A stretch of 39,511 bases of DNA. It comes from an uncultured Candidatus Peribacteria bacterium (GTDB lineage Bacteria; Patescibacteriota; Gracilibacteria; UM-FILTER-43-11). The translations under genes were made by a program, and so were the position numbers. Position 1 is the first letter of the stretch, and each line of letters begins with the position of its first letter. Location of the stretch: positions 1-39,511 of the forward strand of contig CAZNDI010000002.1 of NCBI GenBank assembly GCA_964571805.1, written 5' to 3'. The notes beneath the pieces were generated by a model, which did not search any database, was not told the DNA's origin, and worked only from the letters and a program-made list of their open reading frames with translations. This document shows positions 4,251 through 23,785 of the stretch, one piece after another.

Positions 4251-6128
4251 ATGGCTCAAACGCCACGCCCTGCGGGATCATCAAAATATGAACCGCCAAA
4301 AAAAGGCGGCAATAGCTTTATTTATGTCGTGATTTTCGCCCTGCTTTTGACCCTTTCTTACTATCTTTTTAGCCCCGATCAAGCCGAGGCAAAAAAACAA
4401 ACAGAAGTTCCCATCACTCAAATGGTGAAGGATTTTAAAGAGGGGAAATATGAAAAAATTAAGGTGGAGGGAGACAAAGTCATCGCCACCGCCAAAGATG
4501 GTGAAGTTTATTTGGCCTATCGAGATTTAAGTGAAGGAATCACTGAATTGGGACTGAGTGATGCCACGAATACCACTCCTGTCACAGTGAAAAGTAATAC
4601 CCAGACCAATTTTTGGATCAGTATCATTTCCAGCTGGCTTCCCATCATCCTTTTTGTCGCCCTCATCATCTTTATGGGCCGACAACTAGGGAAAGGAGCC
4701 AATAGCGCCTTCTCTTTTGGAAAGTCTCAAGCCAAAATTTATAATAAGGAAGGGAAAAAGAAGACCACCTTTGCAGATGTAGCCGGGATGGATGAGTCAA
4801 AGAGTGAGCTGGTTGAAATTGTTGATTTCTTGAAGCATCCCAAAAAGTACACCAAAATGGGTGCCAAAATTCCAAGAGGGGTCGTCCTAGTGGGTAATCC
4901 AGGCACTGGTAAAACCCTCCTCGCTCGGGCAGTCGCTGGTGAAGCGGATGTCCCCTTCTTCAGTATTTCGGGGTCAGAATTTGTGGAAATGTTTGTGGGC
5001 GTGGGAGCCAGCCGAGTACGGGATCTTTTTCAGAAAGCGAAAAATAATGCGCCTTGTATTATTTTTATTGATGAAATCGATGCGGTGGGTCGACAACGTG
5101 GCTTCGGCATGGGAGGGGGACACGACGAACGGGAGCAAACTTTGAATCAAATTTTGACGGAAATGGACGGCTTTGAAAATGAAACCAATGTCATCGTGAT
5201 CGCCGCTACCAACCGTCCCGACGTGCTGGATGCCGCCTTAATGCGACCGGGTCGTTTTGATCGACGGGTCATCATCGACATGCCCAACATCAAAGAGCGT
5301 ATTGAGATTCTAAACGTTCATGCCAGAAATAAAGTTTTCGACAAAACCGCAGATTTAGAACGAGTGGCCAAAAAAACACCCGGCTTCTCGGGAGCGGATT
5401 TAGAAAATCTCCTGAATGAATCGGCAATATTGGCCGCTAAAAATGACCGGACCGAGATCACAGGAGCCGACATGGAGGAAGCCATTGAAAAAGTAGGCCT
5501 TGGACCTGAGAAAAAATCTCGACGCCTCAGCGACGAAGAAAAGAAAATCACGGCCTATCATGAAGTGGGTCACGCGCTTGTGGGGAAATTACTTCCTGGT
5601 TGTGATCCTGTGGAAAAAGTTTCCATCATCCCCCGAGGGATGGCTTTGGGGGTAACCTGGTTTTTACCCGAGGAAGACAAACATCTGACGTCCGTTTCCA
5701 AATTTAAAGATCGCATGTGTTCTCTCATTGGAGGTCATGCGGCCGAGCAGTTTATTTTTGGTGAAGTGACCACAGGTGCCAGCAGTGATTTGAAACGAGC
5801 GACGGACATTGCGAGGCATATGGTCAAGAACTATGGAATGAGTGAATTGGGCCCTGTTATTTTTGGCGACCAGTCTTCGAGTTTCATGGGGGCCGAAGTG
5901 GGTTCAAAGGCTAATTATAGTGAACAAGTTGCCTTCCAGATCGATCAGGCCATTTCTAAATTGGTGCTCGAAGCTCAGAAAAAAACCATGGAAATTTTGA
6001 AAAAGAATAAAGCCTTATTGGATGCCATTGCCCAAGAGCTCCTAAAAAAAGAAGTCTTAACCAAAGAGGAATTCAATGCTTTTTTTGAACCAAAGAAAAG
6101 CACAGGTCGCACGAGTAAGACGGTGTGA
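4251..6128 (+). CDS. ftsH: ATP-dependent zinc metalloprotease FtsH
   Basis: Two TM segments, AAA+ Walker A GNPGTGKT, Walker B IIFIDEID, zinc motif HEVGHAL. Starts 3 nt after the serS stop. Confidence 0.95.
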
Positions 6129-7574: not shown

Positions 7575-8192
7575 ATGACAAATCAACAACAAGACGATGA
7601 TTACCCCGATGATATCGCTCGGGCCCTCAATAGCATTGAGGAACTTAAAATGAATGGCCGGCATGAAGAATCGATTTCAGAAGCTGAAAGATTGCTTTTT
7701 GATAACCCTGATTGCGTAGAGGCTTTGGAGGAAATTGCCGACAACTACGTGAGTCTCGACAAGTTTGAAAAAGCCAAAAAAGCTTGTGAAAGAGCTTTAA
7801 AACTGGATGAAAAGAGCTATACGGCCAAATACATTCTTGGCTTCATTCATTCTCAAAAACAACAGTGGAAGCAGGCGGTGGAGTATCTCAAAAGTTCCAA
7901 CACCATTCATGGCAATAACCCTGAAATCTTACGTTGCTTAGGCTGGGCTCTTTTCAATGGAGGAAAACGCACTCAAGGAGTGGTGATTTTGGAGCGGTCG
8001 CTAAATTTAGATCCTGAGAACTCTTTGACCCTTTGTGATTTAGGGATTTGCTACATGCAGATGAAAAATTTTGACAAATCGATTCAACTCCTCAAAAAGG
8101 CCATGCAATTGGACCCTCATAACCGCCGGGTTCAAGACTGTTTCGAAGCCGCCAATGCGTTTCGAAATAAATTTATGGGATTGAAAAAGTAG
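7575..8192 (+). CDS. TPR-repeat protein
   Basis: Repeated 34-aa helical units with A/Y/L periodicity (AL..D....A.Y.LG..) throughout the 205 aa. Confidence 0.7.
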   Translation: MTNQQQDDDYPDDIARALNSIEELKMNGRHEESISEAERLLFDNPDCVEALEEIADNYVSLDKFEKAKKACERALKLDEKSYTAKYILGFIHSQKQQWKQAVEYLKSSNTIHGNNPEILRCLGWALFNGGKRTQGVVILERSLNLDPENSLTLCDLGICYMQMKNFDKSIQLLKKAMQLDPHNRRVQDCFEAANAFRNKFMGLKK

Positions 8193-10460: not shown

Positions 10461-11498
10461 CTACTGATCAGCCTTTTTTCTCCCGGTATCAGCGGCATAG
10501 AATTGATAGAGAGTGCCCAAAAAAGTGATGATGAGGGGGCCATAGACGAGCCCCATGGACCCAAAGGCTCCAACCCCTCCAACGAGGGCAAAAAAGACCA
10601 TGATGGGATGAAACTTTAGCTTGTCTTCAAGGATTTTTCCTCGAATCCAGGTTTCCCTAAGGAGCATTTCGACGACTACAAAGTACACTGCCATTGATAC
10701 AGCGGCCACCCATCCGTCCGTGAAAGCCAAAAGAACGATTCCTGTCAAATAAATGAGGAGAGTGCCCACTGTGGGAATGAAGGAAAAAATGGCGGCCAGC
10801 AATCCCCATATCAAGGCCCCTTTGAAGCCGAAAATAAGGAAGCCTAAGTAGGCCACTAAGCCCGCGATTAGGGCACACAGGGTGTTTCCGTAAAAAATAG
10901 TTTTAGAAATCTCATGAAAAGAGGTGAAAAGTGTTTTTTGTTGAGCTTTTTCGTATGGCAAGACGTTTTTCAAATTCTTCAAAAGTGTATTCTGATCACG
11001 CAGGAAATAGAAATAAAGGAGTAAAAAGACGAAAAAGAGAAAAAGTGAATTTGAAATAGAAGAAAGGAGGGTGAGGCTTTTAGAAGAGGCATAACTCCCC
11101 AAACTGCTTAATGTTGAAACTAAATTTTCCTTTAAAGCGGTTAAGTCTATTTGATATCCAAAAATATTCCAGGTGGTGAGGCTGTTGAAAGCTTGATTTA
11201 GGGCCTCAAAATCAATGGTTTTGGCAAAGACGATGGCTTCTTTGGTGAGGAGGGTAAGCAGGAGGGTAAGGGGCAGGATGATGAAAAGGAGGGTCAAAAG
11301 GACGGTCAAGAAGGCTGACATTGAATCGCCTAAGCCCACTTTCTTCCTGAAGATTTGAGTGAGGGGGGCAGCCACGATGGCAAAAGCAAGGGCTAATACA
11401 AGGGCAGGAATGAAGGGTTTGAAGATGAGAAAAAACAAATAGGCAAAAAGGATGAAAACAAAAATTTTCACCATGGCGTTGAATTGAATTTTATTCAT
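10461..11498 (-). CDS. AI-2E family transporter (PerM/UPF0118)
   Basis: 345 aa, about 8 TM segments. Conserved C-terminal half (IPTVGTLLIY..., FFALVGGVGAFGSMGLVYGPLI). Confidence 0.85.
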   Translation of the reverse strand: MNKIQFNAMVKIFVFILFAYLFFLIFKPFIPALVLALAFAIVAAPLTQIFRKKVGLGDSMSAFLTVLLTLLFIILPLTLLLTLLTKEAIVFAKTIDFEALNQAFNSLTTWNIFGYQIDLTALKENLVSTLSSLGSYASSKSLTLLSSISNSLFLFFVFLLLYFYFLRDQNTLLKNLKNVLPYEKAQQKTLFTSFHEISKTIFYGNTLCALIAGLVAYLGFLIFGFKGALIWGLLAAIFSFIPTVGTLLIYLTGIVLLAFTDGWVAAVSMAVYFVVVEMLLRETWIRGKILEDKLKFHPIMVFFALVGGVGAFGSMGLVYGPLIITFLGTLYQFYAADTGRKKADQ

Positions 11499-11507
11499 GG
11501 CAATGGG

Positions 11508-11565
11508 GTTGGATGAAGAAACTCAAACCCTCGACCTGTCCGGTGTCCATCGGACCGCTCTAACC
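11508..11565 (-). pseudogene. tRNA-like 3' fragment (anticodon arm, T arm, acceptor 3' strand; no 5' half)
   Basis: Minus-strand read: GGTTAGAGCG GTCCG ATGGACAC CGGAC AGGTC GAGGG TTTGAGT TTCTT CATCCAA C. It parallels tRNA-Gly at 19986-20062 and has the identical T loop. It has an 8-nt anticodon loop and no matching 5' acceptor or D stem upstream. Confidence 0.55.
11521..11537. repeat. Left direct repeat (att-like core) ACTCAAACCCTCGACCT
   Basis: Identical 17-mer at 20002-20018. Extending leftwards gives 24/27 matches. Confidence 0.8.
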
Positions 11566-11719
11566 TATCTCTTTATATTTTCTGGAGCTCCATGTTGGCC
11601 GAAGTGCGGACTTTTTCAAGTAGTGAAAATGTCCAAGGAACTCAAGTGTTTACGCATCAAAATCTACACGTAATTGATATTTAGGGCAATGCCTAAAGTT
11701 TTTAATATTCAAATAATAA

Positions 11720-12151
11720 ATGATTTACTTAAAAGAACTAAAAATAACATATCATCGAAAACGAGTTCAGGATGACTTTATTAGCAAGCGGGCCAAAAGC
11801 CCTGAACAAATTTATAAGCTCTTTAAATGGATGAGTCATGAAACACGTGAAAAGGCTCTTTGTCTTCATCTTAATCCACAATTGGAAATTATTTCTTATG
11901 AACAGGTTGGGATGGGTGATGCCATGGGCCTTACTTTAGATATACAGGGTATTTTCCGAGGGGCTTTGCTAAGCATGGCTACTTCAATAGTCCTTATTCA
12001 TAATCATCCTCATGGATGCAGGAAGCCATCAGAAAAAGATACCGCTGCCTTTGAGCACTTAAAATTGATTGGCGAGTTGCATAAAATCAAGCTCCAAGAT
12101 TTTATAATTATTAGTGAGGAAGGTTATTTTAGCTTTGAGGAAGAAATTTAA
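11720..12151 (+). CDS. RadC-like JAB/MPN domain protein (DUF2466)
   Basis: JAMM-type motif VLIHNHPHGCRKPSEKD (HxHPxGxxxPSxxD). About 140 aa, like the stand-alone RadC C-terminal domains common on mobile elements. Confidence 0.85.
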   Translation: MIYLKELKITYHRKRVQDDFISKRAKSPEQIYKLFKWMSHETREKALCLHLNPQLEIISYEQVGMGDAMGLTLDIQGIFRGALLSMATSIVLIHNHPHGCRKPSEKDTAAFEHLKLIGELHKIKLQDFIIISEEGYFSFEEEI

Positions 12152-12166
12152 GTCACTAGAATGCTT

Positions 12167-13648
12167 TTAATAATTTTCTTCCACATAAGATTCGCAGCCT
12201 TCAATAAAGGAATCCGAATTACCTTCGCAGTCATAAGTATCTTGAATGTCATTTTCTTCTGCCCATTCATATCCGGCCTCATGGCCACTGCAATCTTCGG
12301 TGCAATCATAACTATAAAAAGTATTGTAACCACTATAGTTCTTCTTTACATACTCATTACACCCGTCTTCGGAAAATCCCGTTCCAAACTTACTTTGACA
12401 AGCATCAAAACTGCTTACGCTATTATCAGAAGCCCACTGATAGCCATCCCAAAAATTAGGGAGAGTGTTAGCGGGATTACTTGGAATGAAGTTATTTTCT
12501 TGAGGAATATAAATTGTTGTTTGATCTGAGACGAAAAGATCATTGCATCTAGCCATAAAAAAGTAGGAATTTAAGCCAAAGTCAATGTTATCCCAATCTT
12601 CTCGAATACCATATTTAAAACTTGTATCTCCTTTTTTATATTCAGTTAAATCATATTCATTACGCCTTCCTGTATCTGAATTTATCGCAGTAATAGTAAT
12701 TTTTTCACAATTGTTTGAAGTTTTTCCATTTATATAGAAAGCATTATTTTCTGACCTAACTATTTGTCCAGACTCAGGAATTGAAATGAATGATTCATCA
12801 TTAGTAGCAGGCTTTTCATTTTCAACCTCAGCTATTGGTGGAGAAATTTCCTTTTCAAGATTGCTTATTGTATTTTGATTTAGGTCATTATTTTCAGCTT
12901 CTCCAATAGATTTAGATGGGCTTTGAACAACTTTTGTGGGATCAATTTTAATTGATTTAATCATTTCATCAATAACTTTTTCATTATCTTCAAATCCCTT
13001 TAGATTTTGATTATTAATCGGTTTTCCCTTTTGAAAATAATCTATTACTTCCTGCCAAGCTTCTTCTATTTTTCCTGACTTCCAATTTTCAGGAATATTT
13101 TCGTAAGCATATGCTTCTGAGCCATCACCTCTCATTGTTGCTAAATATTCCCCCAATTTGCCAAAGTCATAATTAAAAACAACTTCATAGACTTGATCAT
13201 ATTGATCTACAAAAATTACTTGTTTGTAAAACGTAGATAAACTGCCCACTTCTTGATATAAAGCTTTATTATAAACAATGGCATTCATACCATCTACTTT
13301 GGTATATTCATTACTTATATTTCCATTTGTATTGCCACAAGTCATACTGTCGTAATCAGCTAGTTGCGGATTTTTACCGTAGTCTTTTAAATCTTCTAAT
13401 AATTTTCTATAATCTTGTATTTCTCTACCTCGATCTTCATCTAAATCGACACAGGGTTGGATAAATTCTGAAATTGGCTTAATTGTAATACTGATATCTG
13501 GATCGGGTTCATAAATAGGCATTTCATCGGCTGAAACTTTTAAATTCTGAGGATTTGAAAAACTAACTCCATTGATTGTTGTTTGTTCACTATTTGCTGA
13601 GCAACCTGCTAGTAAAATTAAAGCGACAAATGAAATAATTCTTTTCAT
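12167..13648 (-). CDS. Secreted lipoprotein with duplicated C-terminal Cys-rich module
   Basis: MKRIISFVALILLAGCS signal peptide with lipobox; the ATG at 13648 is preferred over the track start at 13696. The C-terminus carries two copies of a GY.WA..N...(D)C....F.E.GC..YV..NY module. Confidence 0.7.
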   Translation of the reverse strand: MKRIISFVALILLAGCSANSEQTTINGVSFSNPQNLKVSADEMPIYEPDPDISITIKPISEFIQPCVDLDEDRGREIQDYRKLLEDLKDYGKNPQLADYDSMTCGNTNGNISNEYTKVDGMNAIVYNKALYQEVGSLSTFYKQVIFVDQYDQVYEVVFNYDFGKLGEYLATMRGDGSEAYAYENIPENWKSGKIEEAWQEVIDYFQKGKPINNQNLKGFEDNEKVIDEMIKSIKIDPTKVVQSPSKSIGEAENNDLNQNTISNLEKEISPPIAEVENEKPATNDESFISIPESGQIVRSENNAFYINGKTSNNCEKITITAINSDTGRRNEYDLTEYKKGDTSFKYGIREDWDNIDFGLNSYFFMARCNDLFVSDQTTIYIPQENNFIPSNPANTLPNFWDGYQWASDNSVSSFDACQSKFGTGFSEDGCNEYVKKNYSGYNTFYSYDCTEDCSGHEAGYEWAEENDIQDTYDCEGNSDSFIEGCESYVEENY

Positions 13649-13874
13649 ACTAATGAGGCTAAATAACTTAAAAGAGGGTGAACCAGGTACGTCCAATCAC
13701 TTGCTCCAAAGAGTAGCCTATCGGCTGATTCACCCACCTCTAGGCGATAGAACACCTTTTGGTAAGCAAAAAACTCCTTGGAGGGAAAGTTTGTGATTTT
13801 GGACGTACATTCACATATTATTGTCTAAGACTTTTCCAGGCAAGAAGAAAATGTCAGAATAGGTTCATATTAAT

Positions 13875-14936
13875 ATGTATATGAAGATGAGCCCCATTCC
13901 ATATAGAATGTATGCGGAAAGCAATTTTGACTTTTTCCTGGTACTACTCTCACATTTTAATCTTTCTGACTTTTACTCGAAAGATTCTTTGGACTTGGAA
14001 ATTTCTTTATTTGAATTGGGTTTTAGTAATGAAAATCTTTATGGATGTGAGAATAGCTGTCTCTTAAGTCTTTTTGAAAGTGCAAAGTTAATTTCTACTG
14101 ACCAAGATACTCTAAAAGAAGTTGAGGAGCTCTCCAGACAGAAGCCCATGGAGCAGGGCGCTCTAAATAAAAGAAGGAAATTCAGTATTAATTGTAGTGA
14201 CTTTTTGAAGTATATCGAATTAATCCTTAATGACTTTAGACTAGGTAAGATCGGTCTTAAATCCTCTGTGGACCAAAGTTATTACAACTATGAGCGTCAG
14301 ATCGAGATTTTTGACTTATTTATAGAGAGTTTATTGAAAAAATTCCCGAATTCATTTAAGACAAATCTAGATGAATTTATAGAATGTCTTGCCTTCCCGT
14401 GCCCTTTTGCTTTAGATGGTAAACTGGACACAAATTTATTTCTTTTTGATGCGTTGATTGTAGATAAGATTTTCAAGAAAGAGTTGGAAGTATCTAATAT
14501 TGTACGAATTCCGAGTAAGCACAGAGTCTTGGAGCCTGACAAAATTCCTACTCACGTAAAGAAAATGACTTGGCATGTTTTAGAGGGTCTCACAAATGAT
14601 GTAATTCCTATAAAATCAAAAATTGATTGGAATAGTAATGGCAATGATGCGTTGAATCTGAGTCTATGCAATAAATACTTATTACTAAATGGAAAGGTGT
14701 ACGAATTTGCTGTGAATGCTCGTAATCCTCAGAAAATATTAAAAGGGCTCATTGAAAATAACGGTGAGTTGAATATTACAGAGTTTTCAAAACTAATTCC
14801 AAAAGCAAAGAATGTCTATAAAAAATACTATGAATCATTTATTACGAGTTTATTTAATGCTACCAATCTAAAGAAATCTGAACTCGAAACAACTTTTATG
14901 TTTGATGTGGTGAGCAAGAAGATTTACAAAAAGTAG
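13875..14936 (+). CDS. Hypothetical protein (element cargo, ORFan)
   Basis: 353-aa ORF in AT-rich DNA. No motif recognised. Confidence 0.5.
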   Translation: MYMKMSPIPYRMYAESNFDFFLVLLSHFNLSDFYSKDSLDLEISLFELGFSNENLYGCENSCLLSLFESAKLISTDQDTLKEVEELSRQKPMEQGALNKRRKFSINCSDFLKYIELILNDFRLGKIGLKSSVDQSYYNYERQIEIFDLFIESLLKKFPNSFKTNLDEFIECLAFPCPFALDGKLDTNLFLFDALIVDKIFKKELEVSNIVRIPSKHRVLEPDKIPTHVKKMTWHVLEGLTNDVIPIKSKIDWNSNGNDALNLSLCNKYLLLNGKVYEFAVNARNPQKILKGLIENNGELNITEFSKLIPKAKNVYKKYYESFITSLFNATNLKKSELETTFMFDVVSKKIYKK

Positions 14937-14948
14937 CAAAGTCTATTT

Positions 14949-14959
14949 AAAGTGACTTT
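14949..14959. promoter_or_regulatory. 11-bp palindrome AAAGTGACTTT, copy 1 (operator-like)
   Basis: The reverse complement differs only at the central base. It repeats 60 bp downstream (15009-15019) and 10/11 at 20086-20096. Confidence 0.4.
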
Positions 14960-15008
14960 GACGCCTTATTTAAGCTAAAAAATGTGTTTTAGCTAACATG
15001 ACCCCCGC

Positions 15009-15019
15009 AAAGTGACTTT
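15009..15019. promoter_or_regulatory. 11-bp palindrome AAAGTGACTTT, copy 2 (operator-like)
   Basis: Identical to 14949-14959, and both copies are followed by GA. Lies upstream of the small gene at 15161. Confidence 0.4.
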
Positions 15020-15160
15020 GATGGCTTTGATACGGGGAAATCCGATTAAAAATTGCGTGGTTTGAGAATTAAGACTTTGCTCTATTTTGCTTGAAAGAGA
15101 AATTGTTAGTGCCTAGCATCACAGCAATATGATGCCTTTTTAAGAATAAACAAAATTACT

Positions 15161-15388
15161 ATGCAAAAACTATCTGACATCTCAATTTCTGCCGCTCTCA
15201 TATCAATTGGGGCGAAATTTAAAGGCATTGAGAAAAACTCAAGCGGCCGCGCCGACTTTCTTTTTAATGAAGATGAAGATTTTATCACAGAATCCGTTGA
15301 CCTCTACTACAGAAATGAGCTCAAAGTCAGTGCCTTAGCCTTCGCAAATAATTTTAGAAATCTAAAGAACCTCATTCACCAAAACTAA
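15161..15388 (+). CDS. Small hypothetical protein (75 aa)
   Basis: ATG ORF. Its stop overlaps the next ATG (TAATG at 15386-15390), which suggests translational coupling. Confidence 0.5.
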   Translation: MQKLSDISISAALISIGAKFKGIEKNSSGRADFLFNEDEDFITESVDLYYRNELKVSALAFANNFRNLKNLIHQN

Positions 15389-15543
15389 TGCAGCTCTCAT
15401 CCGAATCAATCAAAGGTTTTCAAGAAGCCTACAAGATCGATTTTGGGATCAGTTTGAACGAATTGGAAGCTCAAGAAATGGCTCAAAACCTACTTAGTTT
15501 CTATCAATTAATCACTCCAAAAAATGAAAAGACTTGTTCTTAA
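15388..15543 (+). CDS. Small hypothetical protein (51 aa), below the ORF-track threshold
   Basis: Hand translation: MQLSSESIKGFQEAYKIDFGISLNELEAQEMAQNLLSFYQLITPKNEKTCS. The start overlaps the upstream stop. Confidence 0.3.
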   Translation: MQLSSESIKGFQEAYKIDFGISLNELEAQEMAQNLLSFYQLITPKNEKTCS

Positions 15544-15750
15544 GCCGCCATAAAAAAAGAGGTCAAAGAATTTAATCCATAACCTCTCTTAGCCAATGAG
15601 AAATATATCAAAGAATATCTCTTTGGACAATATTCCGTCCAAAGAAAAATTCAAAACCTGCCACCGTAACCGTGGCATGAATATTTATACTTTCTATGCC
15701 TATTCACAGCAAATTAGAGATAGAAAGCCCGAAGATTTAAATTAATATTT

Positions 15751-17202
15751 ATGAAAAAATTAACAACATTACTTCTTAATGATTCAAAAATCTACAAACT
15801 CCGCTTAACAGGAATTTGGGCCGAAATGTTTTACCACGTCATCTTTGTGAATGATGGAGCTACTTATGCGCCCTTTGTCCTCTTTGAAAATGGCAATAGC
15901 ATTCCTTTAAAGACAGATACAAAGGAGGGCTATACATTTTTTGATGACTTAGAAAGTAAGCACTGCATCATTGATACAGGAGAACCTTTGTGGTTTGCCG
16001 ATGGAGTCGTCAATACAGTTGGAATTGGAGGCTTAGTCTCAGTCGTAAAACAATCTAAAATTGACCCAAATGGTATCTATGAATCTGTCACTAAGATTTT
16101 GGCTGATTATTATGATTTCTATAATTCTTACGAGCTCCAAATCATTTTTGCCCATATAATTCACACTTACATCCTAGGTCTTCTTGGAAAAACATTTTAC
16201 TTGATGCTTGAGGGTGAGCGAAATACAGGTAAATCAAGTCTACAAAGTGTTATGGCCCATCTACAACATAATGGATGCTTTAGTGGCAAAGTTACTATGG
16301 CTAGCCTTATTAGGAAAATCCATTTCTTTGGAGCTTCAGTTAACATTGATGAATTGGATAAACTCCACAAAGATGAACTTAAAATGGCTACGGGCATTCT
16401 CAATAGCGGCATGTATGCCAGTGGAACTTATGAGATCGTCAATTTGGACAGCAAGAAGTCAAAAAATCAGCTCAAAATATATAAAACCTTTGGCTCCAAA
16501 ACCTTTTCTGCAAATAAATCTTTCTTCGACGATTCCCTTTTAAGCCGTTGCATTGTGATCAATACTGTTCGCAATCGAAAGCAGGTTAAAAGCATATATG
16601 AAATAACTGAGCAGGAATTAAATCATTTCCAATATCTTAGGAATCAGATGTTTGCTTATTGTTTGATGAATGGCAAGGGAATCCATGCAGATATAAAAGA
16701 AATGCAAGCCTATTTATCAGCTCAAGGCAAGTACGGAAGGCGCTCCGATATTTTTTCGATTGTGGCTGGCATCCTAAAGCACTTTGGAGCTGATTACAAA
16801 CCAGTTCTTGAATATCTTGATGATCGGGAAAGCTTTGATGAAGAAGCTTCTTTTGACAATCGTTTTTATCTAACTTTAGGTTTCCTAGTTGAAAAAATGG
16901 AATCAGAGCTAAAGCAAAAACTAGTATTTAGCAATGAAGACCTGAGAAGTTATCTCATTGACCAATTAGATATGGAAACCCAATCTCAATATAGTCCGAC
17001 TCCAAGAAGTGTCGGTAGCCTTTTAAAAAAGCACCGTATTATCGAGAACAAGAATGAACGTCAAAGAATTACCAGTGGCATTGATAAGGGAAAGTACCAA
17101 TATTTTCTTGATACTGTAAAAATTCTTGAGCTTATTGATCGAACCGAATTTGATGATTTAAAAGAAAGAATTGGAAAGTTTGATTTTAATGTACTGAAAT
17201 AA
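15751..17202 (+). CDS. P-loop NTPase, replication/helicase-like (SF3- or DUF3631-like)
   Basis: Walker A GERNTGKS, Walker B-like VNIDELD about 45 aa later, then ILNSG...G and SRCIVIN, as in plasmid/phage primase-associated ATPases. The family assignment is tentative. Confidence 0.6.
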   Translation: MKKLTTLLLNDSKIYKLRLTGIWAEMFYHVIFVNDGATYAPFVLFENGNSIPLKTDTKEGYTFFDDLESKHCIIDTGEPLWFADGVVNTVGIGGLVSVVKQSKIDPNGIYESVTKILADYYDFYNSYELQIIFAHIIHTYILGLLGKTFYLMLEGERNTGKSSLQSVMAHLQHNGCFSGKVTMASLIRKIHFFGASVNIDELDKLHKDELKMATGILNSGMYASGTYEIVNLDSKKSKNQLKIYKTFGSKTFSANKSFFDDSLLSRCIVINTVRNRKQVKSIYEITEQELNHFQYLRNQMFAYCLMNGKGIHADIKEMQAYLSAQGKYGRRSDIFSIVAGILKHFGADYKPVLEYLDDRESFDEEASFDNRFYLTLGFLVEKMESELKQKLVFSNEDLRSYLIDQLDMETQSQYSPTPRSVGSLLKKHRIIENKNERQRITSGIDKGKYQYFLDTVKILELIDRTEFDDLKERIGKFDFNVLK

Positions 17203-17213
17203 CGTTAACTTGC

Positions 17214-17268
17214 TTCACTCCTTCACTTAATCTTTTCCCTTATTAAAAACAATCAGTGAATGAGTGAA
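17214..17268. promoter_or_regulatory. Inverted repeat built from four TTCACT hexamers
   Basis: TTCACTCCTTCACT (17214-17227) and AGTGAATGAGTGAA (17255-17268) are complementary at 13/14 positions, with a 27-nt spacer. Lies between the P-loop gene stop and the next start. Confidence 0.45.
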
Positions 17269-17296
17269 CATTGATTTAAAAATTAACTATATTACT

Positions 17297-17947
17297 ATGA
17301 ACAATAAATTGATCAAAAAACCATCAAAATCATTAGAAAAACCCCCTGAAATCAAGGCCATTGAAGATTTTAAAAAAATGATCATCGAATCTATTCGCTT
17401 TGAAGAATGTGACCCAAAGCATATTTTTAAGGAGGCATTTGATTTATTCAATCAGCAAGAACATGCCAAAACCAAGAAGGAAAAAAAGAAAATACGAAAA
17501 GAGCTTGAAGGCAAGGCAGGCAAGCTTTCTAAAGTTTTAGGTCTAGATACGAAACATCAATTAACCGAAGCTGTGCGAGATGATTACATCGCCTTTGCCA
17601 TTGAAATGTGCCAATCATTGGAAAAAGAATACGATATTAAAACTTCTTCCGAAAAGGCTCTCGTACAAGCAACCGTGCTTGCCTATTGTCAGATGCAAGA
17701 ATGCAGCCGATTATTCTTGTCACGGCTGTCTCCAGAGTACCTCTCACATGAAAAAGCACATTACCTTGGCATTACCACCAAAGGAATCGATAATGCTTAT
17801 AGGCGCTTTCTACAGGGCATTCAAATGCTAAAGCAAATAAAGACACCTCCTTTAAAAGTGAATATAAAGACTGAGAATGCTTTTTTAGCTCAGAATCAAC
17901 AAATTAATAACCCAATCCCTAATCATGAAATCAATACCCCCCAATGA
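17297..17947 (+). CDS. Hypothetical protein (element)
   Basis: The ATG at 17297 (MNNKLIKK...) is preferred over the GTG at 17264. Lys-rich N-terminus. Overlaps the next gene by 23 nt. Confidence 0.5.
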   Translation: MNNKLIKKPSKSLEKPPEIKAIEDFKKMIIESIRFEECDPKHIFKEAFDLFNQQEHAKTKKEKKKIRKELEGKAGKLSKVLGLDTKHQLTEAVRDDYIAFAIEMCQSLEKEYDIKTSSEKALVQATVLAYCQMQECSRLFLSRLSPEYLSHEKAHYLGITTKGIDNAYRRFLQGIQMLKQIKTPPLKVNIKTENAFLAQNQQINNPIPNHEINTPQ

Positions 17948-18254
17948 TTTAGGAAAATTTTTGGTAGAACAATGCCAACATATTGATGTGAATGATTTTG
18001 TACATAAAGCAAAACAGAAGCTCAAAAATGAGTTCGTTTATACTAGTTTGAAAATTGATGGTTATGAAGTTGATTTAGCGACTTCCGACTTATCAAATGG
18101 CGGGTCTAGAATTTGGTTTATTTGCTCTCTATGTAGGCGAAAAGTTGGAAAGCTTTATAAGCATCCGCAAAATCAAACTATTGCCTGTCGAATATGCCTC
18201 AAGCTTGAATACCGTTCAAGGAGGTATAAAGGAATGATTGAAAATGTGGTATAG
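17925..18254 (+). CDS. Zinc-ribbon protein (CxxC...CxxC)
   Basis: WFICSLCRRKVGKLYKHPQNQTIACRICLKLEY has two CxxC pairs forming a 4-Cys ribbon. Translationally coupled to the upstream ORF. Confidence 0.55.
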   Translation: MKSIPPNDLGKFLVEQCQHIDVNDFVHKAKQKLKNEFVYTSLKIDGYEVDLATSDLSNGGSRIWFICSLCRRKVGKLYKHPQNQTIACRICLKLEYRSRRYKGMIENVV

Positions 18255-18270
18255 GAGTGTATAATCTTGG

Positions 18271-18367
18271 TGCAGTTCCACATTATCAATTCAGCCAAAG
18301 CTCTATTTTGTTGTCCCTAAGGGGCGACTCATCCAACAAAAGTGCTTTGGCATTGATGTGGACTGCA
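18271..18367. promoter_or_regulatory. Nested imperfect palindrome upstream of the recombinase gene
   Basis: Outer arms are TGCAGTTCCACATTATCAATTCAGCCAAAGC (18271-18301) and GCTTTGGCATTGATGTGGACTGCA (18344-18367). Inner arms are TTTTGTTG (18306-18313) and CAACAAAA (18334-18341). A TATAAT sits at 18260-18265 just upstream. Confidence 0.5.
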
Positions 18368-18398
18368 ATGAGTCGTCCCTTTAAGTAACTAAAATTTA

Positions 18399-19997
18399 AT
18401 GAAATATATTATCTATGTAAGAAAAAGCACCGAAGACCGAGAAGACAGGCAAGTGCTCTCTATCGACTCCCAAATTGAAGCCATTCAAAACAAATTCCCA
18501 AACCTTGAAATAGTTGAAGTAATCAAAGAATCCAAAAGTGCCTACAAACCCTACAATCGCCCAGAATTTCAAAGAATGGTTGAACTCTTTGAGAGCGGAA
18601 CAGTCCAAGGGTGCCTGGCGTGGCACCCAGACCGCCTAAGCCGTGAGCCCATCAGTGGTGGAATGATTATGCACTTGTTAGATCGTGGGGTGATTAAAGA
18701 TTTAAAATTTGCCTCCTACAATTTCGATAATTCGCCAGAGGGAAAGATGATGCTTTCCTTCGTACTCTCGCAATCCAAATACTTTTCGGAAAAACTCAGT
18801 ATCGATGTAAAGCGGGGCATGTTGAAAAAATGTAGAAATGGCCATATGCCTACCAGGGCACCGGTTGGCTATATGCCAGACTACATGGCGGAAAAAGGAG
18901 AGAAACGGGCCCTTGTAGACCCTGATCGTTTTGATTTAGTAAGAAAGATGTGGGATTTAATGTTAACAGGCCAATATTCAATTCCAAAAATTCAACAGGC
19001 AGCGGAATCAATAAGCCTTACACATCGTACTACCAGAAGGACTCCAGCTAAATCGATTTCGAAGAACGGCTTTCATAAGATGTTTTCGAATATATTCTAT
19101 ACGGGTCAATTCATTTGGGATGGCGAAATGTACAAAGGCAGTCATCCTGCCATGATTAGCATGGAAGAATTTGAAAAAGTTCAAGCCATTGTTGGAAGGC
19201 GTCATGTACCTAGAACACAAAAGTATGAATCGCTTACCTCTGGCCTTGTTAGATGTGCCTGTGGTTCTGCTATTGTTGTGGATCAGCGAAAGAAAAGGAT
19301 TAAGAAAGCACAGCTTGATCGCATTTACAAATACGCTAGATGCACACAGCAGAAAAAGAAAGGTAAGTGCAAAGAGTCCACGCTTTGCTTATTGACACTA
19401 GAAAACCAAATTGTTGACTATCTAGGTCAAATCAAAGTCTCGCCTGCCTTGCATCAATGGGCGATAAAGAATATCAATAAAGAAAATGAAAATGAGCTAG
19501 AGAATCAGCAGAAAGAACGGAATCGGCTTAAGCGTGCCCATGAGAATTGTCAAAAGAGGCTAGATAATCTATTAAAGCTAAAAATTTCTCCAGAAAATAC
19601 AGACGGTGGGTTATTGAGCGACGAAGAATTTAAGTTTCAAAAGCAATCCATCACCAAAGAGCGTGAACAATATACGGATATGATAAAGCAATTTGATGAT
19701 CGGGCTGACAAGTGGATGAATATTACAGCGGATGCTTTTGACACAGCTTGCAATGCCTTAACTGTTTTCCAAAAGGGAACCACTCAAGAAAAGAAGGTAC
19801 TTCTTGCGAAAATTGGGGCAAACTTTATTTTGAAAGATAAGAAATTGTCTATAGAAGCCAAATATCCCTACTTCATCTTAGAAAAGTATATGCCTCTCAG
19901 TCACAAATTAGAAAGAAAGATGGGCGGACTAAAAAAACATCAAGAACAAGCCAAAAATAGCATTTCTGAACAATTAAATACTATTTGGAGCGGGTGA
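18399..19997 (+). CDS. Large serine recombinase (integrase)
   Basis: Resolvase-type N-terminus YVRKSTEDREDRQVLSIDSQ (catalytic Ser), HPDRLSRE, recombinase domain (PVGY), Zn ribbon (CACGS...YKYARC) and a C-terminal coiled coil. 532 aa. Confidence 0.9.
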   Translation: MKYIIYVRKSTEDREDRQVLSIDSQIEAIQNKFPNLEIVEVIKESKSAYKPYNRPEFQRMVELFESGTVQGCLAWHPDRLSREPISGGMIMHLLDRGVIKDLKFASYNFDNSPEGKMMLSFVLSQSKYFSEKLSIDVKRGMLKKCRNGHMPTRAPVGYMPDYMAEKGEKRALVDPDRFDLVRKMWDLMLTGQYSIPKIQQAAESISLTHRTTRRTPAKSISKNGFHKMFSNIFYTGQFIWDGEMYKGSHPAMISMEEFEKVQAIVGRRHVPRTQKYESLTSGLVRCACGSAIVVDQRKKRIKKAQLDRIYKYARCTQQKKKGKCKESTLCLLTLENQIVDYLGQIKVSPALHQWAIKNINKENENELENQQKERNRLKRAHENCQKRLDNLLKLKISPENTDGGLLSDEEFKFQKQSITKEREQYTDMIKQFDDRADKWMNITADAFDTACNALTVFQKGTTQEKKVLLAKIGANFILKDKKLSIEAKYPYFILEKYMPLSHKLERKMGGLKKHQEQAKNSISEQLNTIWSG

Positions 19998-20062
19998 AGG
20001 GACTCAAACCCTCGACCTCTGCCTTGGCAAGGCAGCGCTCTAATCAACTGAGCTACACCCGC
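19986..20062 (-). tRNA. tRNA-Gly (anticodon GCC), CCA encoded
   Basis: Hand-folded cloverleaf: GCGGGTG TA GCTC AGTTGATTA GAGC G CTGCC TTGCCAA GGCAG AGGTC GAGGG TTTGAGT CCCTT CACCCGC T CCA. All four stems pair. 77 nt. Confidence 0.9.
20002..20018. repeat. Right direct repeat (att-like core) inside the tRNA-Gly T arm
   Basis: Identical to 11521-11537. Confidence 0.8.
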
Positions 20063-20232: not shown

Positions 20233-21624
20233 TCAACCATCAAAGCCATCTAAAGAGTCTACAGGATTCTTATTAACTCTTATTCCACCTTTTGGTTTTT
20301 GCTTGGCCTCGGCGTCAAGTCTTGCTTTCAACTCAGAATCTGTAATGGTGACTTTTGCAGGGTCAACTTTGGCAGGCACTTCGGGGGGAGTGGCTTCGGG
20401 GGTTGCTGGTTTGGAAACTCTGGCTTCGGGTTTTGGAGGACTGACATCGGTTACCGCGTCGACTTTTTTGGGTGCCTTTTGAATTTCATCCGGTGTGACA
20501 GGTTTAAGATTCTCGGGTCGAACTTGATTTACGGCGACGAGAGGTGGTTTTTCTGGGGTAGCGGGACTAGCTTCAGACGTGCTTGTAAAAAGCTTATCCA
20601 GCTCAGGATCACCGGTTATCGTTTTCTTCCGCGTCTCAGCTAATTTAGCGGCTTCTTCGCTCACTTTTTCGTTGGCCTTGGCCTCGAGACGTTTTTTATA
20701 GTCTCTTTTGGCCGTTGCGATTTGATCAAAGCTCATGGCTGTATCAAAGGTTCCCGTCTCCACCATCTTATCTGTCCTGACAGCCAACTCTGTAGCCACT
20801 TTTAAATTCTCATCCAAAGCTTTTTCTAGTTCTGCATTGGCTTTTCTTGTCATTTCCTTTCGAGCCAGTTTTTCCTCCTCTGTTTCAGGGATGGCCGCAG
20901 TAGGCTCAACTTGGGCCTGTTCCACTTGTGCGACAGACTCAGCGGCCACGTCGGGTGAGGAAGTGACAGATTCAGGGCCACGTGATGCCATTTTTGTTGA
21001 ATTTTGAGCCATGGCTTGGGCGAGGAATTCTTCAAAAGGTTTTTCTTTTAGGCTAAAAACTGCAATGCGGTCGAGGGCTAGTTGGGCAACTTCTCCGTGG
21101 ACTCCAGGTTGTCCTTTTGTGGCTTCGAGCATTTTCATCATGGCTTGCATGGCGGGGAAGTTTGCGGCTTGCTTGTAGGATTCAAATTGATCGGCAATGG
21201 CGTACATGCCTTCGGTTTTTTCGGTGAGGGCGAAAAGGTTGTCGAGGAGCTCTTTTTCATTTAGGGGGACTTTTGCTTTGATTTGATCTATGGTTTGTTG
21301 GGCCAGTGTGGCTTTTTCACCGCCTTCATTTACAAAATCTTCTAAAGTTCCAAGCATGAGCTTGATGGTTTCTTCTCTGCCACCCTCTTTGACTAAGGTG
21401 TCAACGACGTTTAAAAGGAGGTCAATATTCCCACTGGTAATCAGATCTTTTGTGATTGTTTTTTGCTGCTCAGCTTCCGCTTCAGAAACCTTTGTATCTC
21501 CTTCATCTTCAATGATCACAATATCCTCCATTCCTACGGATGGTTTTGGGGATTCCGGGGGCTTAGGGCCTTGACCCATTGCCTCCTTGATATCCTGTGA
21601 TTCTCGGCCCTTGGGTCCTGACAT
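20233..21624 (-). CDS. Hypothetical acidic protein with Pro/Lys-rich C-terminal tail (operon gene 7)
   Basis: 463-aa ORF. No TM segment or signal peptide by eye. Helical repeat-like N-terminal half, coiled-coil middle, PxxP/K-rich tail. Confidence 0.6.
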   Translation of the reverse strand: MSGPKGRESQDIKEAMGQGPKPPESPKPSVGMEDIVIIEDEGDTKVSEAEAEQQKTITKDLITSGNIDLLLNVVDTLVKEGGREETIKLMLGTLEDFVNEGGEKATLAQQTIDQIKAKVPLNEKELLDNLFALTEKTEGMYAIADQFESYKQAANFPAMQAMMKMLEATKGQPGVHGEVAQLALDRIAVFSLKEKPFEEFLAQAMAQNSTKMASRGPESVTSSPDVAAESVAQVEQAQVEPTAAIPETEEEKLARKEMTRKANAELEKALDENLKVATELAVRTDKMVETGTFDTAMSFDQIATAKRDYKKRLEAKANEKVSEEAAKLAETRKKTITGDPELDKLFTSTSEASPATPEKPPLVAVNQVRPENLKPVTPDEIQKAPKKVDAVTDVSPPKPEARVSKPATPEATPPEVPAKVDPAKVTITDSELKARLDAEAKQKPKGGIRVNKNPVDSLDGFDG

Positions 21625-21629
21625 ACTAA

Positions 21630-22262
21630 TTAATTTTTTGATTGTCTATAAAGCGTCCCGTTTTTTGAGTAAACATAGAGAGTATCACCGTATTTATTTC
21701 CATAAACATCATTATTTTTGCCAATCTTTTTACTCAACTGTGCAGCAATTTTTTCTTCCTCGGGTGTTTTATTTTCAACTTCTTCATAACTTCTCATGCC
21801 AAAAGCATCTTCTACTGCCTTTTCAATAGCTTCACTGTCTTTTGTAGCTTCTTGATCATTATCTTCAATTTTATCCCCCCTAAAAGCATACCATTCGTCT
21901 CCTGATCTTTTGATTTCACTCAAATCACCCTTTTTTACGATAGTCCCAACTCTAAATAATACTACCTTGTATTCATAATTGTTATATTCTACCCCCACTG
22001 GCACACCAGCTACTAAGCCCTGAGGATTTGCTTCCTTTGCCAATTTAATTGCTGCCTTTCCATCCGTTTTTTTAGATACATCCTCATAATCTTTATACTT
22101 TTCAAGTTCAGCCCTCATATCTTCTTCCGTATGAAGAGTTTCTGACTTAGAATGCTGATTACTCATTTGTTCTCCACGTAGAGGCATGACTCCTTCAAGC
22201 TTTTGCTGAGCACTCTTACCTTCTGGGCCTCTTTTTAGGGCTTCAAAATCTTTATTTTCCAT
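21630..22262 (-). CDS. Hypothetical protein (operon gene 6)
   Basis: 210-aa ORF with a 5-nt gap to the next gene. No motif recognised. Confidence 0.6.
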   Translation of the reverse strand: MENKDFEALKRGPEGKSAQQKLEGVMPLRGEQMSNQHSKSETLHTEEDMRAELEKYKDYEDVSKKTDGKAAIKLAKEANPQGLVAGVPVGVEYNNYEYKVVLFRVGTIVKKGDLSEIKRSGDEWYAFRGDKIEDNDQEATKDSEAIEKAVEDAFGMRSYEEVENKTPEEEKIAAQLSKKIGKNNDVYGNKYGDTLYVYSKNGTLYRQSKN

Positions 22263-22443: not shown

Positions 22444-22797
22444 ATGGACCCTGATCTACTGAGCCTGTTCTTACCAAAAGGTATTCTGGAATGGTTTATT
22501 GTAAAAAACATTGAACAACATGGAGAAACGGTGAGGGTTACTTTTGAGGAGAAGAATCTAGTTCCAGAAATACCAGAGAAACATAGAGGCAAGAAAATAA
22601 GTTCTAAAGGTTTCAAAGAGCTCCTGGTCGATGACTTTCCCATTAGAGGAAGGAAAACTGAGCTGCTGTTTTTGAGACGGAGCTGGGAAATTGAGGGGGT
22701 TGAAGAAAGGCTCAAGCGAAACATTAGCCTTTGCGCTCCGGGAACCAAACTGGAAAAAGAATTCGCTGATTTTTTAAAAGAAATGGATCGAGTCTGA
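22444..22797 (+). CDS. ISL3/ISAon1-like transposase, N-terminal region protein (orfA)
   Basis: 117 aa. LLSLFLPKGILEWF...FEEKN..PE....SKGF......DFPIRGRK..L...RR.W...G matches the N-terminal-region proteins of this IS group as I recall them. Confidence 0.75.
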   Translation: MDPDLLSLFLPKGILEWFIVKNIEQHGETVRVTFEEKNLVPEIPEKHRGKKISSKGFKELLVDDFPIRGRKTELLFLRRSWEIEGVEERLKRNISLCAPGTKLEKEFADFLKEMDRV

Positions 22798-23785
22798 ACC
22801 CGTTGAGATCAGTCGCATAGCTAAATGGAACCTCCTAAACCCTGAAGTCCTCCAGAAACAGTACAAAGATCACCTGAGTGATTTCCCGGAGTGGGATCAA
22901 AAGGATCATTGCCTGACCTATCTCCTCTTCCCTGATAACTTAGGCTCAAGGCTCAGCATTGATGAAACCGCCTTGAGTAACGGTGAGCTTTACACCATCA
23001 TCACCAACAAGGATGCCAAAGGAAGGAAGGGATCTCTTGTAGCCATGGTCAAAGGAACCAAGGCAAGCATAGTCAGTGAGATCTTGATGAAGCTACCAGT
23101 CAGTGAAAGGATGAAAGTCCTAGAAGTAACATTGGACATGAGTAACGCGATGGATTGGATCACCCGGGAGAGTTTTCCCAACGCCCAAAAGGTCACGGAT
23201 AGGTTCCATGTCCAAAAGCTCGTATCTGAAGCCCTTCAGGAGATGAGGATTAAAGAAAGGTGGAAAGCCATCGATGAGGAAACAGAGCTCATACTAAAAT
23301 GCCAAAAGGAAAAAAGAAGCTACAAGCCCGAGCTCTACAAAAACGGAGACACAAAAAAGCAGCTTCTGGCCAGAAGCAGATACCTTCTCTTCAAGCCCCA
23401 GAGCAAGTGGAAAGAATCACAAAAACAAAGGGCCCAGATCCTGTTCACTGTCTTCCCTGAGCTGGAAGAAGGTTACAAGCTCTCCATGATGTTCCGTTCC
23501 TTCTACCATCACAGTAAGACCAGGGAAGAAGGAAAAGAAAGGTTGAATCAGTGGTATGGGAAGGTGGAGGAAAAGATTGAAAATAAAGATTCCTTCAAAA
23601 CCTTCACCACCGCGATGCAATCAGTGAAAGCCCATGAAGGCACCATCCTCAACTACTTCCCTGAAAGATCTACTAATGCTTCAGCGGAATCCTTCAATGC
23701 AAAACTCAAGGGATTTAGAGCTCTAGTGCGAGGAGTGAGTGACATGAAGTTCTTCTTATACAGAATCACTACTTTTTTTGGTTAA
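22778..23785 (+). CDS. ISL3-family transposase catalytic region (orfB; no canonical start codon, +1 frame relative to orfA)
   Basis: The frame is open from 22778. The ORF track starts at the TTG at 22973. Motifs: LSIDETAL, VTLDMSNAM...FPNAQKVTDRFHVQK, STNASAESFNAKLK. Confidence 0.8.
   Translation, partial: KKWIESEPVEISRIAKWNLLNPEVLQKQYKDHLSDFPEWDQKDHCLTYLLFPDNLGSRLSIDETALSNGELYTIITNKDAKGRKGSLVAMVKGTKASIVSEILMKLPVSERMKVLEVTLDMSNAMDWITRESFPNAQKVTDRFHVQKLVSEALQEMRIKERWKAIDEETELILKCQKEKRSYKPELYKNGDTKKQLLARSRYLLFKPQSKWKESQKQRAQILFTVFPELEEGYKLSMMFRSFYHHSKTREEGKERLNQWYGKVEEKIENKDSFKTFTTAMQSVKAHEGTILNYFPERSTNASAESFNAKLKGFRALVRGVSDMKFFLYRITTFFG

Follow-up and report, generated by a model that had tools for sequence, protein, structure and literature searches.

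A likely integrated copy of a small mobile element at tRNA-Gly in a Candidatus Peribacteria genome and an apparently undescribed family of relatives in Patescibacteria

Introduction

Several classes of small integrative elements bear on the locus analyzed here, a segment of about 8.5 kb next to a tRNA-Gly(GCC) gene in a 39,511-nucleotide stretch of DNA (the window hereafter) from an uncultured Candidatus Peribacteria bacterium (GenBank assembly GCA_964571805.1, contig CAZNDI010000002.1, positions 1 to 39,511 of the forward strand). Staphylococcus aureus pathogenicity islands (SaPIs) have been shown to replicate after excision, and the phage-inducible chromosomal island-like element (PLE) satellites of Vibrio use a large serine recombinase (LSR). 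Integrative and conjugative elements of actinomycetes (AICEs) rely on tyrosine integrases, RepSA-type initiators and an FtsK-like Tra transfer protein. According to one account (PMC2440964), the AICEs pSAM2 and SLP1 (11–17 kb) integrate into tRNA genes and replicate autonomously after excision. Staphylococcal cassette chromosome (SCC) elements of pattern 1 encode small proteins (LP1413) and then the Cch helicase, followed by the LSR (CcrAB), and their replication after excision has been proposed, though not proven (PMC7581432).

We report that positions ~11538–20001 of the window are likely an integrated copy of a small mobile element that belongs to a family of the Candidate Phyla Radiation (CPR)/Patescibacteria. 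The backbone common to this family consists of a DUF5659 protein, an open reading frame (ORF) of ~50 aa, a P-loop replication protein, a helical protein (p227), a zinc-ribbon protein (Zn109) and an LSR. A first-pass annotation, made from the letters of the window alone, had proposed a compact integrative and possibly replicative element at tRNA-Gly that lacks virion and conjugation genes; our analysis supports this proposal, and family-level evidence strengthens it.

The closest analogue is SCC pattern 1. As in SCC and SCCmec, an LSR targets the 3′ end of a housekeeping gene, which is restored, the gene(s) for small proteins and a predicted MCM-like self-loading helicase lie directly upstream of the recombinase, and a variable cargo bay is combined with the absence of recognizable transfer genes. 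The two differ in target (tRNA-Gly(GCC) in the window, rlmH (orfX) for SCC), in size (8.5 kb versus 20–60 kb), in host (CPR versus Staphylococcaceae) and in their small proteins, which in the window are DUF5659, a 51-aa ORF, p227 and Zn109; moreover, the LSR gene of the window overlaps its target gene, no Pfam DUF927 domain is found, and the single LSR is a distant relative of Ccr, from the same superfamily but without orthology (NCBIfam cut-off 900 bits for each; CcrB 61.9, CcrC 40.9). The element falls outside SCC: its recombinase is not orthologous to Ccr, it does not target rlmH, and no DUF927 can be detected in the sequence.

Likeness to other systems is more partial. SaPIs, the wider group of phage-inducible chromosomal islands (PICIs) and Vibrio PLEs are likewise small islands with an integrase, a helicase or primase-helicase initiator, cis repeats near the replication gene and no structural genes, but the element of the window has no recognizable packaging or helper-interference genes, and SaPIs and PICIs differ further by their tyrosine integrases. 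With AICEs it shares a very small size and integration in a tRNA gene, but not the tyrosine integrase, the RepSA-type initiator or the FtsK-like Tra protein. Islander-type tRNA islands (T-loop and 3′-end sublocations; Williams 2002) resemble it in having the integrase beside the tRNA, a tRNA 3′ part supplied by the element and a partial tRNA repeat at the far end. They differ in having tyrosine integrases, in contrast to the serine recombinase of the window, where in addition the block of identity covers tRNA positions ~44–60 and stops short of the 3′ end, and the integrase ORF ends within the tRNA.

Results

Limits and composition of the element

The segment is bracketed by an exact 17-bp direct repeat, ACTCAAACCCTCGACCT, which has only two copies in the window, at 11521–11537 and 20002–20018. 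No second copy is expected by chance, as estimated from 100 dinucleotide-preserving shuffles, even with 2 mismatches allowed. Exact search, shuffles and blastn thus bear out the repeat described in the first-pass annotation, including its leftward extension, in which 22 of 24 positions are identical by blastn and 24 of 27 by eye. That annotation had also judged the segment AT-rich by eye and suggested windowed composition profiles, which we computed: GC content is 0.358 in 11538–20001 versus 0.442 for the remaining window, the lowest-GC 8.46-kb interval of the whole sequence starts at 11701, the tetranucleotide distance to the remainder is twofold higher within the bracketed segment, and GC at third codon positions (GC3) falls from 0.51 in the flanking permease gene to 0.31 in the RadC-like gene and 0.21 in the lipoprotein gene. 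The breaks in GC, GC3 and tetranucleotide composition coincide with the 17-bp repeats, and we therefore count them in favor of ~11538–20001 being an integrated element.

One could instead suppose that there is no element at all, the 17-mers being the T arms of two paralogous tRNA genes, one of them a pseudogene, in an AT-rich block native to the chromosome. The left site is indeed tRNA-like over ~55 nt around the core. On the other hand, composition breaks at the repeats, the LSR gene abuts the tRNA, and homologous backbones occur at other tRNAs and inside comM (see below). The worry that the 17-mer might be common to many T arms also proved unfounded, since ACTCAAACCCTCGACCT was absent from the tRNAs of 24 fetched loci (copies of this contig left out). 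Taken together, these observations leave the supposition scarcely credible.

A family of related elements in different target sites

Family members were reached through homologues of the 483-aa P-loop protein and of Zn109, and conservation of the backbone was assessed by blastp and tblastn. At least ten distinct relatives carry the backbone, in metagenome-assembled genomes (MAGs) of Peregrinibacteria, Gracilibacteria and Nealsonbacteria and in unbinned metagenome contigs (loci given L numbers below). The target is tRNA-Gln(TTG) in L005 and L023, tRNA-Gln(CTG) in L024–27, tRNA-Leu(GAG) in L008 and L020, tRNA-Arg(TCG) in L016 and again tRNA-Gly(GCC) in the Nealsonbacteria contig L029, whose LSR is 38% identical to that of the window; in L022, a tRNA 3′ end lies at the contig edge. 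In every tRNA case, the LSR gene is convergent with the tRNA gene and overlaps its 3′ end. Distal repeats of the last nucleotides of the tRNA delimit an element of 9.67 kb in L008 (15 bp) and one of ~9.3 kb in L020 (~18 bp), and no distal site could be delimited in L005 or L029. In L010, an element of ~10.3 kb has broken up a comM/Mg-chelatase gene, whose two parts (4651–5475 and 15799–16443) separate at the Walker A codons; the N-terminal part ends in ...GGHHLLVLGS-stop and the C-terminal part reads ..ILMHGPPGTGKS, and together the halves read ...GGHHLL followed by ..LMHGPPGTGKS. Total size across the family is 8.5–10 kb where both ends are defined.

That one backbone recurs in target sites unrelated to each other speaks strongly for present or past mobility of the family by site-specific integration mediated by the LSR. 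We found no description of such a family in the literature on Peregrinibacteria serine recombinases, DUF5659 and CPR integrative elements; these are apparently undescribed mini mobile elements with their own integration enzyme and replication helicase. We take the segment in the window to be a genuine integrated element, and probably an integrative replicon resembling SCC elements or satellites.

The lack of transfer genes, an imperfect left attachment site and an ISL3 transposase nearby might also suggest the decayed remnant of a larger prophage or integrative and conjugative element that has lost its structural or transfer genes. This origin is very improbable in view of a compact 8.5–10 kb backbone that recurs in at least ten independent contexts and several CPR lineages, with no structural genes adjoining it in any of them. 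Furthermore, the genes are all intact, and the helicase occurs in no INPHARED phage or PLSDB plasmid.

The large serine recombinase

The LSR gene (18399–19997, plus strand; 532 aa) encodes Resolvase, Recombinase and Zn_ribbon_recom domains. The Pfam Resolvase match covers residues 4–149 (E 7.6e-18), PF07508 (Recombinase, E 1e-7) and PF13408 (zinc beta-ribbon, E 1e-5) both score above their cut-offs, and PHROG 95 (integrase) matches over residues 1–501 (E 2.8e-61); phmmer gave no match in the PDB. Residues Y6, R8, S10, R79 and R82 are invariant in the seven family members compared, and the R8/S10 catalytic set is intact. The stop codon lies 12 nt within the 3′ end of the tRNA-Gly gene. The domains and this overlap agree with the earlier description of an LSR abutting the tRNA.

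The LSR gene closes with TGG AGC GGG TGA, codons complementary to the tRNA's CCA, discriminator base and acceptor 3′ strand; its C-terminal Trp codon is the one that complements CCA. The LSR of L029 also ends in ...SG-stop on the acceptor-stem complement. Reading of a tRNA-encoded CCA as Trp by the LSR frame is seen in the window (19984–19997), in L016 (5594–5608) and L024 (11883–11897), and also in L005 (14813–14875) and L023 (5967–6080); tails of this kind include ...IWSG-stop, ...WLRG-stop and ...WYTR-stop. The tRNA of L029 has no encoded CCA, and its LSR ends in ...IMSG-stop (12103–12112). In L005, L023 and L020, the LSR ORF runs on into host-side tRNA DNA, and its tail would therefore change upon excision.

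Upstream of the LSR gene, the region 18255–18398 holds two nested inverted repeats (18294–18351 and 18319–18381), and the best sigma-70-like match of the element, TTGAAA-16-TATAAT, lies at 18238–18265 across the end of the Zn109 gene. Judging from these motifs, 18238–18381 may be a region that controls expression of the integrase.

A predicted replicative helicase

The P-loop protein with Walker A and B motifs noted in the first-pass annotation stands, and can now be read as a helicase from its fold and from primase fusions among its homologues. It has 483 aa (15751–17202, plus strand), and is predicted to fold into a beta domain at the N-terminus, a P-loop ATPase and a winged helix at the C-terminus. 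The Walker A motif is GERNTGKS at residues 155–162, of which G155 and T159-G160-K161-S162 are invariant in the family alignment, as are N198, D200 and E201 of the Walker B region and R266. The protein has no match in Pfam (E < 0.1, noise aside), PHROG or, by profile, PDB sequences.

Foldseek comparison of an AF2 model (pLDDT 74) gave as best PDB match the Cch protein of SCCmec (5dgk_B; E 1.7e-4, prob 0.99), with MCM, ORC/Cdc6 and poxvirus D5/E5 next in rank. Among the viral models of BFVD, it comes closest to phage Toprim::DUF927 primase-helicases (E 6e-15, ranging to 1e-5; TMq 0.59), and the fold weakly matches the SaPI5 primase-helicase. Homologues P0022-25 are ~820-aa fusions to an N-terminal CHC2 zinc finger and Toprim (DnaG-type) primase, and in the elements concerned the fusion protein occupies the helicase slot. 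An exhaustive HMMER search with the helicase yielded 4202 representatives; remote homologues sampled among them include DnaG-primase fusions, some touching DUF3631, and one protein (P0094) with a sub-threshold match to a prim-pol domain of the archaeo-eukaryotic primase type. On the basis of the Cch/DUF927 fold matches and of the primase fusions, we assign the 483-aa protein as a putative primase-associated, Cch/DUF927-like replicative helicase and initiator. Relatives were found in none of the 50,697 phage records of INPHARED and 72,556 plasmid records of PLSDB.

The helicase slot is filled by unrelated proteins of 520 and 555 aa in L024 (7641–9203) and L028 (7664–9331), respectively, hhalign detecting no relation. 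A CxxC...CxxC finger at the N-terminus and a Walker A motif (APSSTGKS) are present in the former; the latter yielded no Walker A motif. It seems that a non-orthologous protein has taken the place of the replication protein in a backbone otherwise kept, which is typical of the replication modules of mobile elements.

An inovirus reading, with the P-loop protein as a Zot/pI-like protein, was rejected because this protein is a helicase by fold and primase fusions; as for inovirus coat proteins, the hydrophobic segment is absent from the sequences of both the 51-aa ORF and a 49-aa ORF described below.

Other backbone genes and candidate cis sites

The backbone starts with the gene for the DUF5659 protein (75 aa; 15161–15388, plus strand), to which the 51-aa ORF (15388–15543, plus strand) is coupled by an ATGA overlap. 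The latter is detectably conserved in L019, L005, L016 and L022, and ORFs of 48–58 aa hold its position in L023, L024 and L029. Downstream of the helicase gene, p227 (17264–17947, plus strand; 227 aa, or 216 aa from the ATG at 17297) is a helical protein always followed by the zinc-ribbon gene, here that of Zn109 (17925–18254, plus strand; 109 aa), which is coupled to it. Zn109 consists of a helix and a CxxC...CxxC zinc ribbon. Among the backbone proteins compared across distant elements it has the highest identity (45–54%), and the 31 clusters found for it come, where named, mostly from CPR MAGs. Its model (pLDDT 82, helix and zinc ribbon) gave nothing significant among PDB folds, and the profiles of Zn109 and p227 gave noise only in PDB, Pfam and PHROGs. 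The two tiny coupled ORFs and the coupled pair with a four-cysteine zinc ribbon of the first-pass annotation are present as described, but belong to the conserved backbone and not to the cargo.

We also considered whether p227 and Zn109 stand in for a primase domain. Both are absent from the two elements with primase::helicase fusions, but L024 and L028 keep both and L005 lacks both, and the idea was set aside as a weak lead.

Two non-coding regions are candidate cis sites. The intergenic region upstream of the backbone operon (14937–15160) holds, within 143 nt, four of the 13 copies of GACTTTG in the window, three direct and one inverted, as well as a dyad, and from these motifs it is a candidate operator or iteron region. 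The second region (15544–15750), between the 51-aa ORF and the helicase gene, is conserved; by eye, it agrees with L019 at ~85% of the positions in the part of the alignment inspected. It contains a hairpin with a 13-bp stem (15613–15652) that shows in L019 one compensatory change from G-C to A-T and one change to a G.U pair, and it is a candidate cis element, either an origin or a regulatory site. A 49-aa ORF called by JGI (15596–15745) overlaps the hairpin and is doubtful. Two 18-nt direct repeats (8110–8139) lie upstream of the DUF5659 gene in L010.

Cargo and flanking genes

The cargo lies at the end of the element distal to the LSR. It comprises a RadC-like JAB/JAMM protein (11720–12151, plus strand; 143 aa, HNHPHG...S..D motif, Pfam E 1e-27), a convergent Cys-rich lipoprotein with an LLAGC lipobox (12167–13648, minus strand; 493 aa from MKRIISFVALILLAGC, the mechanical ORF reaching 13696) and a 353-aa ORFan (13875–14936, plus strand; gene-caller start 13908). 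Pfam, ORF analysis and protein searches agree with the inventory of these three genes given earlier. Among 5.8 billion proteins, the 353-aa ORF matches itself alone. It was also considered as a CCPol-like primase and rejected, being unrelated to the primase part of the fusion proteins and to its positional equivalent in L005.

Comparison with L019, whose helicase is 89% identical, shows an unrelated 220-aa ORF in the ORFan slot and a related lipoprotein that was kept, with 56% identity to the N-terminal part of that of the window. Elsewhere in the family, the cargo consists of RadC, HTH_17 and a type I restriction-modification (R-M) system in L024/L025, of DNA methyltransferase and specificity genes (R-M type) in L028 and L029, and of SLH-domain wall proteins and peptidases in L005, L008 and L022. 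As judged from its recurrence in L024/L025, RadC is a putative recurrent accessory gene of the family. The cargo proposed in the first-pass annotation thus stands for RadC, the lipoprotein and the ORFan, which occupy a variable slot, but not for the small ORFs, p227 and Zn109, which are conserved in relatives. PADLOC found no defence system in the window cargo.

All ten ORFs of the element are intact. None of them matches capsid, terminase, portal, relaxase or type IV secretion system families in Pfam, PHROGs, NCBIfam or PADLOC, as the first-pass annotation had anticipated. In L028, a 147-aa ORF (953–1396) gives a near-threshold match to Terminase_2 (small subunit; 25.9 bits against a cut-off of 26.1); it lies past the methylase cargo, ~6 kb upstream of the DUF5659 gene, and is the only hint of a packaging gene in the family.

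These data bear on whether the element is a phage satellite of the PICI/SaPI or PLE type, which would integrate and replicate by itself and be packaged in the virions of a helper CPR phage, with p227, Zn109 and DUF5659 acting in part as helper-sensing or packaging-redirection factors. A size of 8.5–10 kb, an integrase with a helicase or primase-helicase module and the lack of structural genes are typical of satellites, PLEs also have an LSR, the helicase fold weakly resembles that of SaPI5, and the TerS-like match in L028 lies upstream of the backbone. Nevertheless, the window element and nine relatives contain no TerS, capsid-size-redirection, Ppi-like or other structural or packaging family of PHROGs, no helper phage is known, and in IMG/VR a detectable relative is encoded by just two contigs, one of them with a weak match. 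We consider this life style unlikely; it is compatible with our preferred explanation, an SCC-like integrative element, and would specify its transfer route only.

To the right of the element, two adjoining minus-strand genes without Pfam match lie just past the tRNA (20233–22262). The first encodes 463 aa that look, by eye, of low complexity with an abundance of Glu, Lys, Pro and Ala, and the second 210 aa, with an element-like GC3 of 0.25 though outside the repeats. The ISL3-family transposase (22444–23785), in two ORFs of 117 and 270 aa and probably a frameshifted pseudogene, is outside the element, 2.4 kb right of the tRNA.

The tRNA gene, the left junction and evidence on mobility

The attR-type site is the tRNA-Gly(GCC) gene itself (19986–20062, minus strand), the sole tRNA found, called by ARAGORN and scoring 69 bits with Rfam. 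It is made up of a chromosomal 5′ part (20019–20062), the core (20002–20018) and a functional 3′ end from the element side (19986–20001). On the tRNA strand, the right-hand 17-mer takes in the last part of the variable region as well as the T loop and the T stem's 5′ strand.

The distal, attL-type site (11499–11580, minus strand; core 11521–11537) is a remnant that resembles a tRNA and receives no call from either ARAGORN or Rfam. It is tRNA-like on both sides of the core over ~55 nt, including TTAGAGCG and an anticodon-arm-like hairpin; the element-side arm (11538–11580) includes this hairpin and CGCTCTAA, and the host-side arm (11499–11520) serves as 5′ leader to the permease gene (ATG at 11498). 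Of the two repeat copies, one is located in the T arm of a complete tRNA-Gly gene, as the first-pass annotation stated, but the other is not part of a clean displaced 3′ end. With respect to the Islander definition, the tRNA adjoins the integrase, and the far fragment is identical only in the 17-bp T-arm core, with 9/16 identity from there to the 3′ end. A 58-aa plus-strand ORF (11497–11673) that runs through the left remnant matches no family and is likely to be spurious.

A number of observations weigh against a mobile, self-replicating element of the kind proposed. The first concern the junction. The host-side 16 nt past the perfect left core match the tRNA 3′ end at only nine positions. 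When the host arms are joined into a reconstructed attB, ARAGORN still calls a tRNA-Gly, which has G1.A72 and C2.A71 mismatches, C73 for U73 and a G53.U61 pair. The identity elements of bacterial glycyl-tRNA synthetase (GlyRS) are G1-C72, C2-G71, G3-C70 and U73. The tRNA encoded by the reconstructed attB should be poorly chargeable or unchargeable, going by these positions, and precise excision would thus leave a crippled tRNA. The choice is then between an old, locked-in integration and a junction that did not arise simply from one integration event. The others concern mobility and replication. The empty site proposed as a check, with the permease directly beside tRNA-Gly, was not found by exact-protein look-ups of the permease and the LSR, and in 4 of 4 assemblies from different samples that carry these proteins the element is in place. 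A scan of genome contigs for the permease found no empty site, and a scan of metagenomes gave one 63%-identical permease (L012), whose contig ends 56 nt upstream and is of no further use. The predicted attP junction, likewise a suggested check, is absent from IMG/VR. With neither an empty site nor a circular junction in the collections searched, present-day excision of the window copy is unproven. In addition, no origin, primase or recombination directionality factor (RDF) was recognized in the element, the GACTTTG cluster is not conserved in L019, the helicase has no match to Pfam DUF927 (PF06048), and its global TM-score to Cch is low (0.28).

A perfect 17-bp core beside seven changes in 16 nt has a probability of ~5e-5 under uniform neutral decay by our own estimate. 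Possibly the core was kept by selection or by cycles of recombination as the arm drifted or adapted; alternatively, the site may have a more complex history, or the crossover may have occurred elsewhere.

The same junction invites the view that the segment is a domesticated island, integrated long ago and since locked in: the chromosomal tRNA 3′ end would have degenerated, and the host, now dependent on the end borne by the element, would pass it on vertically, a form of tRNA-based addiction. This would account for the displaced arm at 9/16, for an attB tRNA without G1-C72, C2-G71 and U73, for the presence of the element in all four assemblies, and for a possibly homologous, more decayed remnant before the L012 permease. 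It accords less well with ten intact ORFs and the conserved catalytic residues of the LSR and motifs of the helicase, nor would a perfect core beside a divergent arm often arise by neutral decay, and the L012 similarity is short and lacks statistical support. We regard such domestication as possible, though not the likely outcome. As to L012 itself, positions 1–56, before the AI-2E permease, contain AGGTC..TTTCTT..ACCATG, which resembles a further-decayed left remnant at the point where the contig ends; it may be an ancient remnant or a recurrent integration hotspot.

Discussion

Our preferred reading is that of an integrative element of SCC-like design whose replication would probably follow excision, in parallel with what is proposed for SCC elements and established for SaPIs. 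The anatomy of the element, the recurrence of its family in different target sites, the helicase fold and the primase fusions are shown by the data above; excision, episomal replication and transfer we infer as follows. The mobile form would be a circle whose tRNA-like attP shares sequence with the 3′ end of the LSR gene that the circle carries. The LSR would recombine attP with the tRNA-Gly(GCC) gene, with the crossover in or beside the 17-bp T-arm core, and the element-borne arm, which encodes the last LSR codons too, would replace the tRNA 3′ end and now supply the functional one. Excision would probably require an RDF, for which Zn109 and p227 are candidates by position and conservation. 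The excised circle would probably be replicated from a nearby origin by the self-loading helicase with DUF5659 and the 51-aa ORF product as partners, and with a primase that would be either that of the host or another one. As conserved partners, p227 and Zn109 would, at best guess, serve in excision control as RDF or as replication accessories. No packaging or conjugation genes are recognizable; a helper phage, transformation or vesicles could each mediate spread between cells.

A bolder interpretation, which we offer tentatively and think improbable, is that these elements form a new CPR-specific class of mobile replicon, capsid-less or satellite to a CPR phage, with the integrase gene embedded in the restored tRNA end, a tRNA addiction imposed on the host, and DUF5659, the 51-aa ORF, p227 and Zn109 as new machinery of excision, replication or transfer.

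Whichever the transfer route of the SCC-like element favored here, the most promising leads are its left junction and the four conserved proteins. DUF5659, the 51-aa ORF, p227 and Zn109 are defined targets in which to seek an RDF, a protein that binds the origin, or a novel mechanism of transfer. In addition, the family supplies a clade of serine integrases whose natural attB sites are tRNA genes; these enzymes could serve as CPR genetic tools or as a source of compact integrases. The family also extends the SCC-like design, an LSR and a self-loading helicase without transfer genes, far beyond Firmicutes.

CPR bacteria have tiny genomes and depend on host cells. Their mobile elements are barely charted, and gene exchange among them is an open question. 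The family described here provides a concrete and recurrent vehicle that would move R-M systems, RadC-like proteins and cell-surface proteins between CPR lineages.

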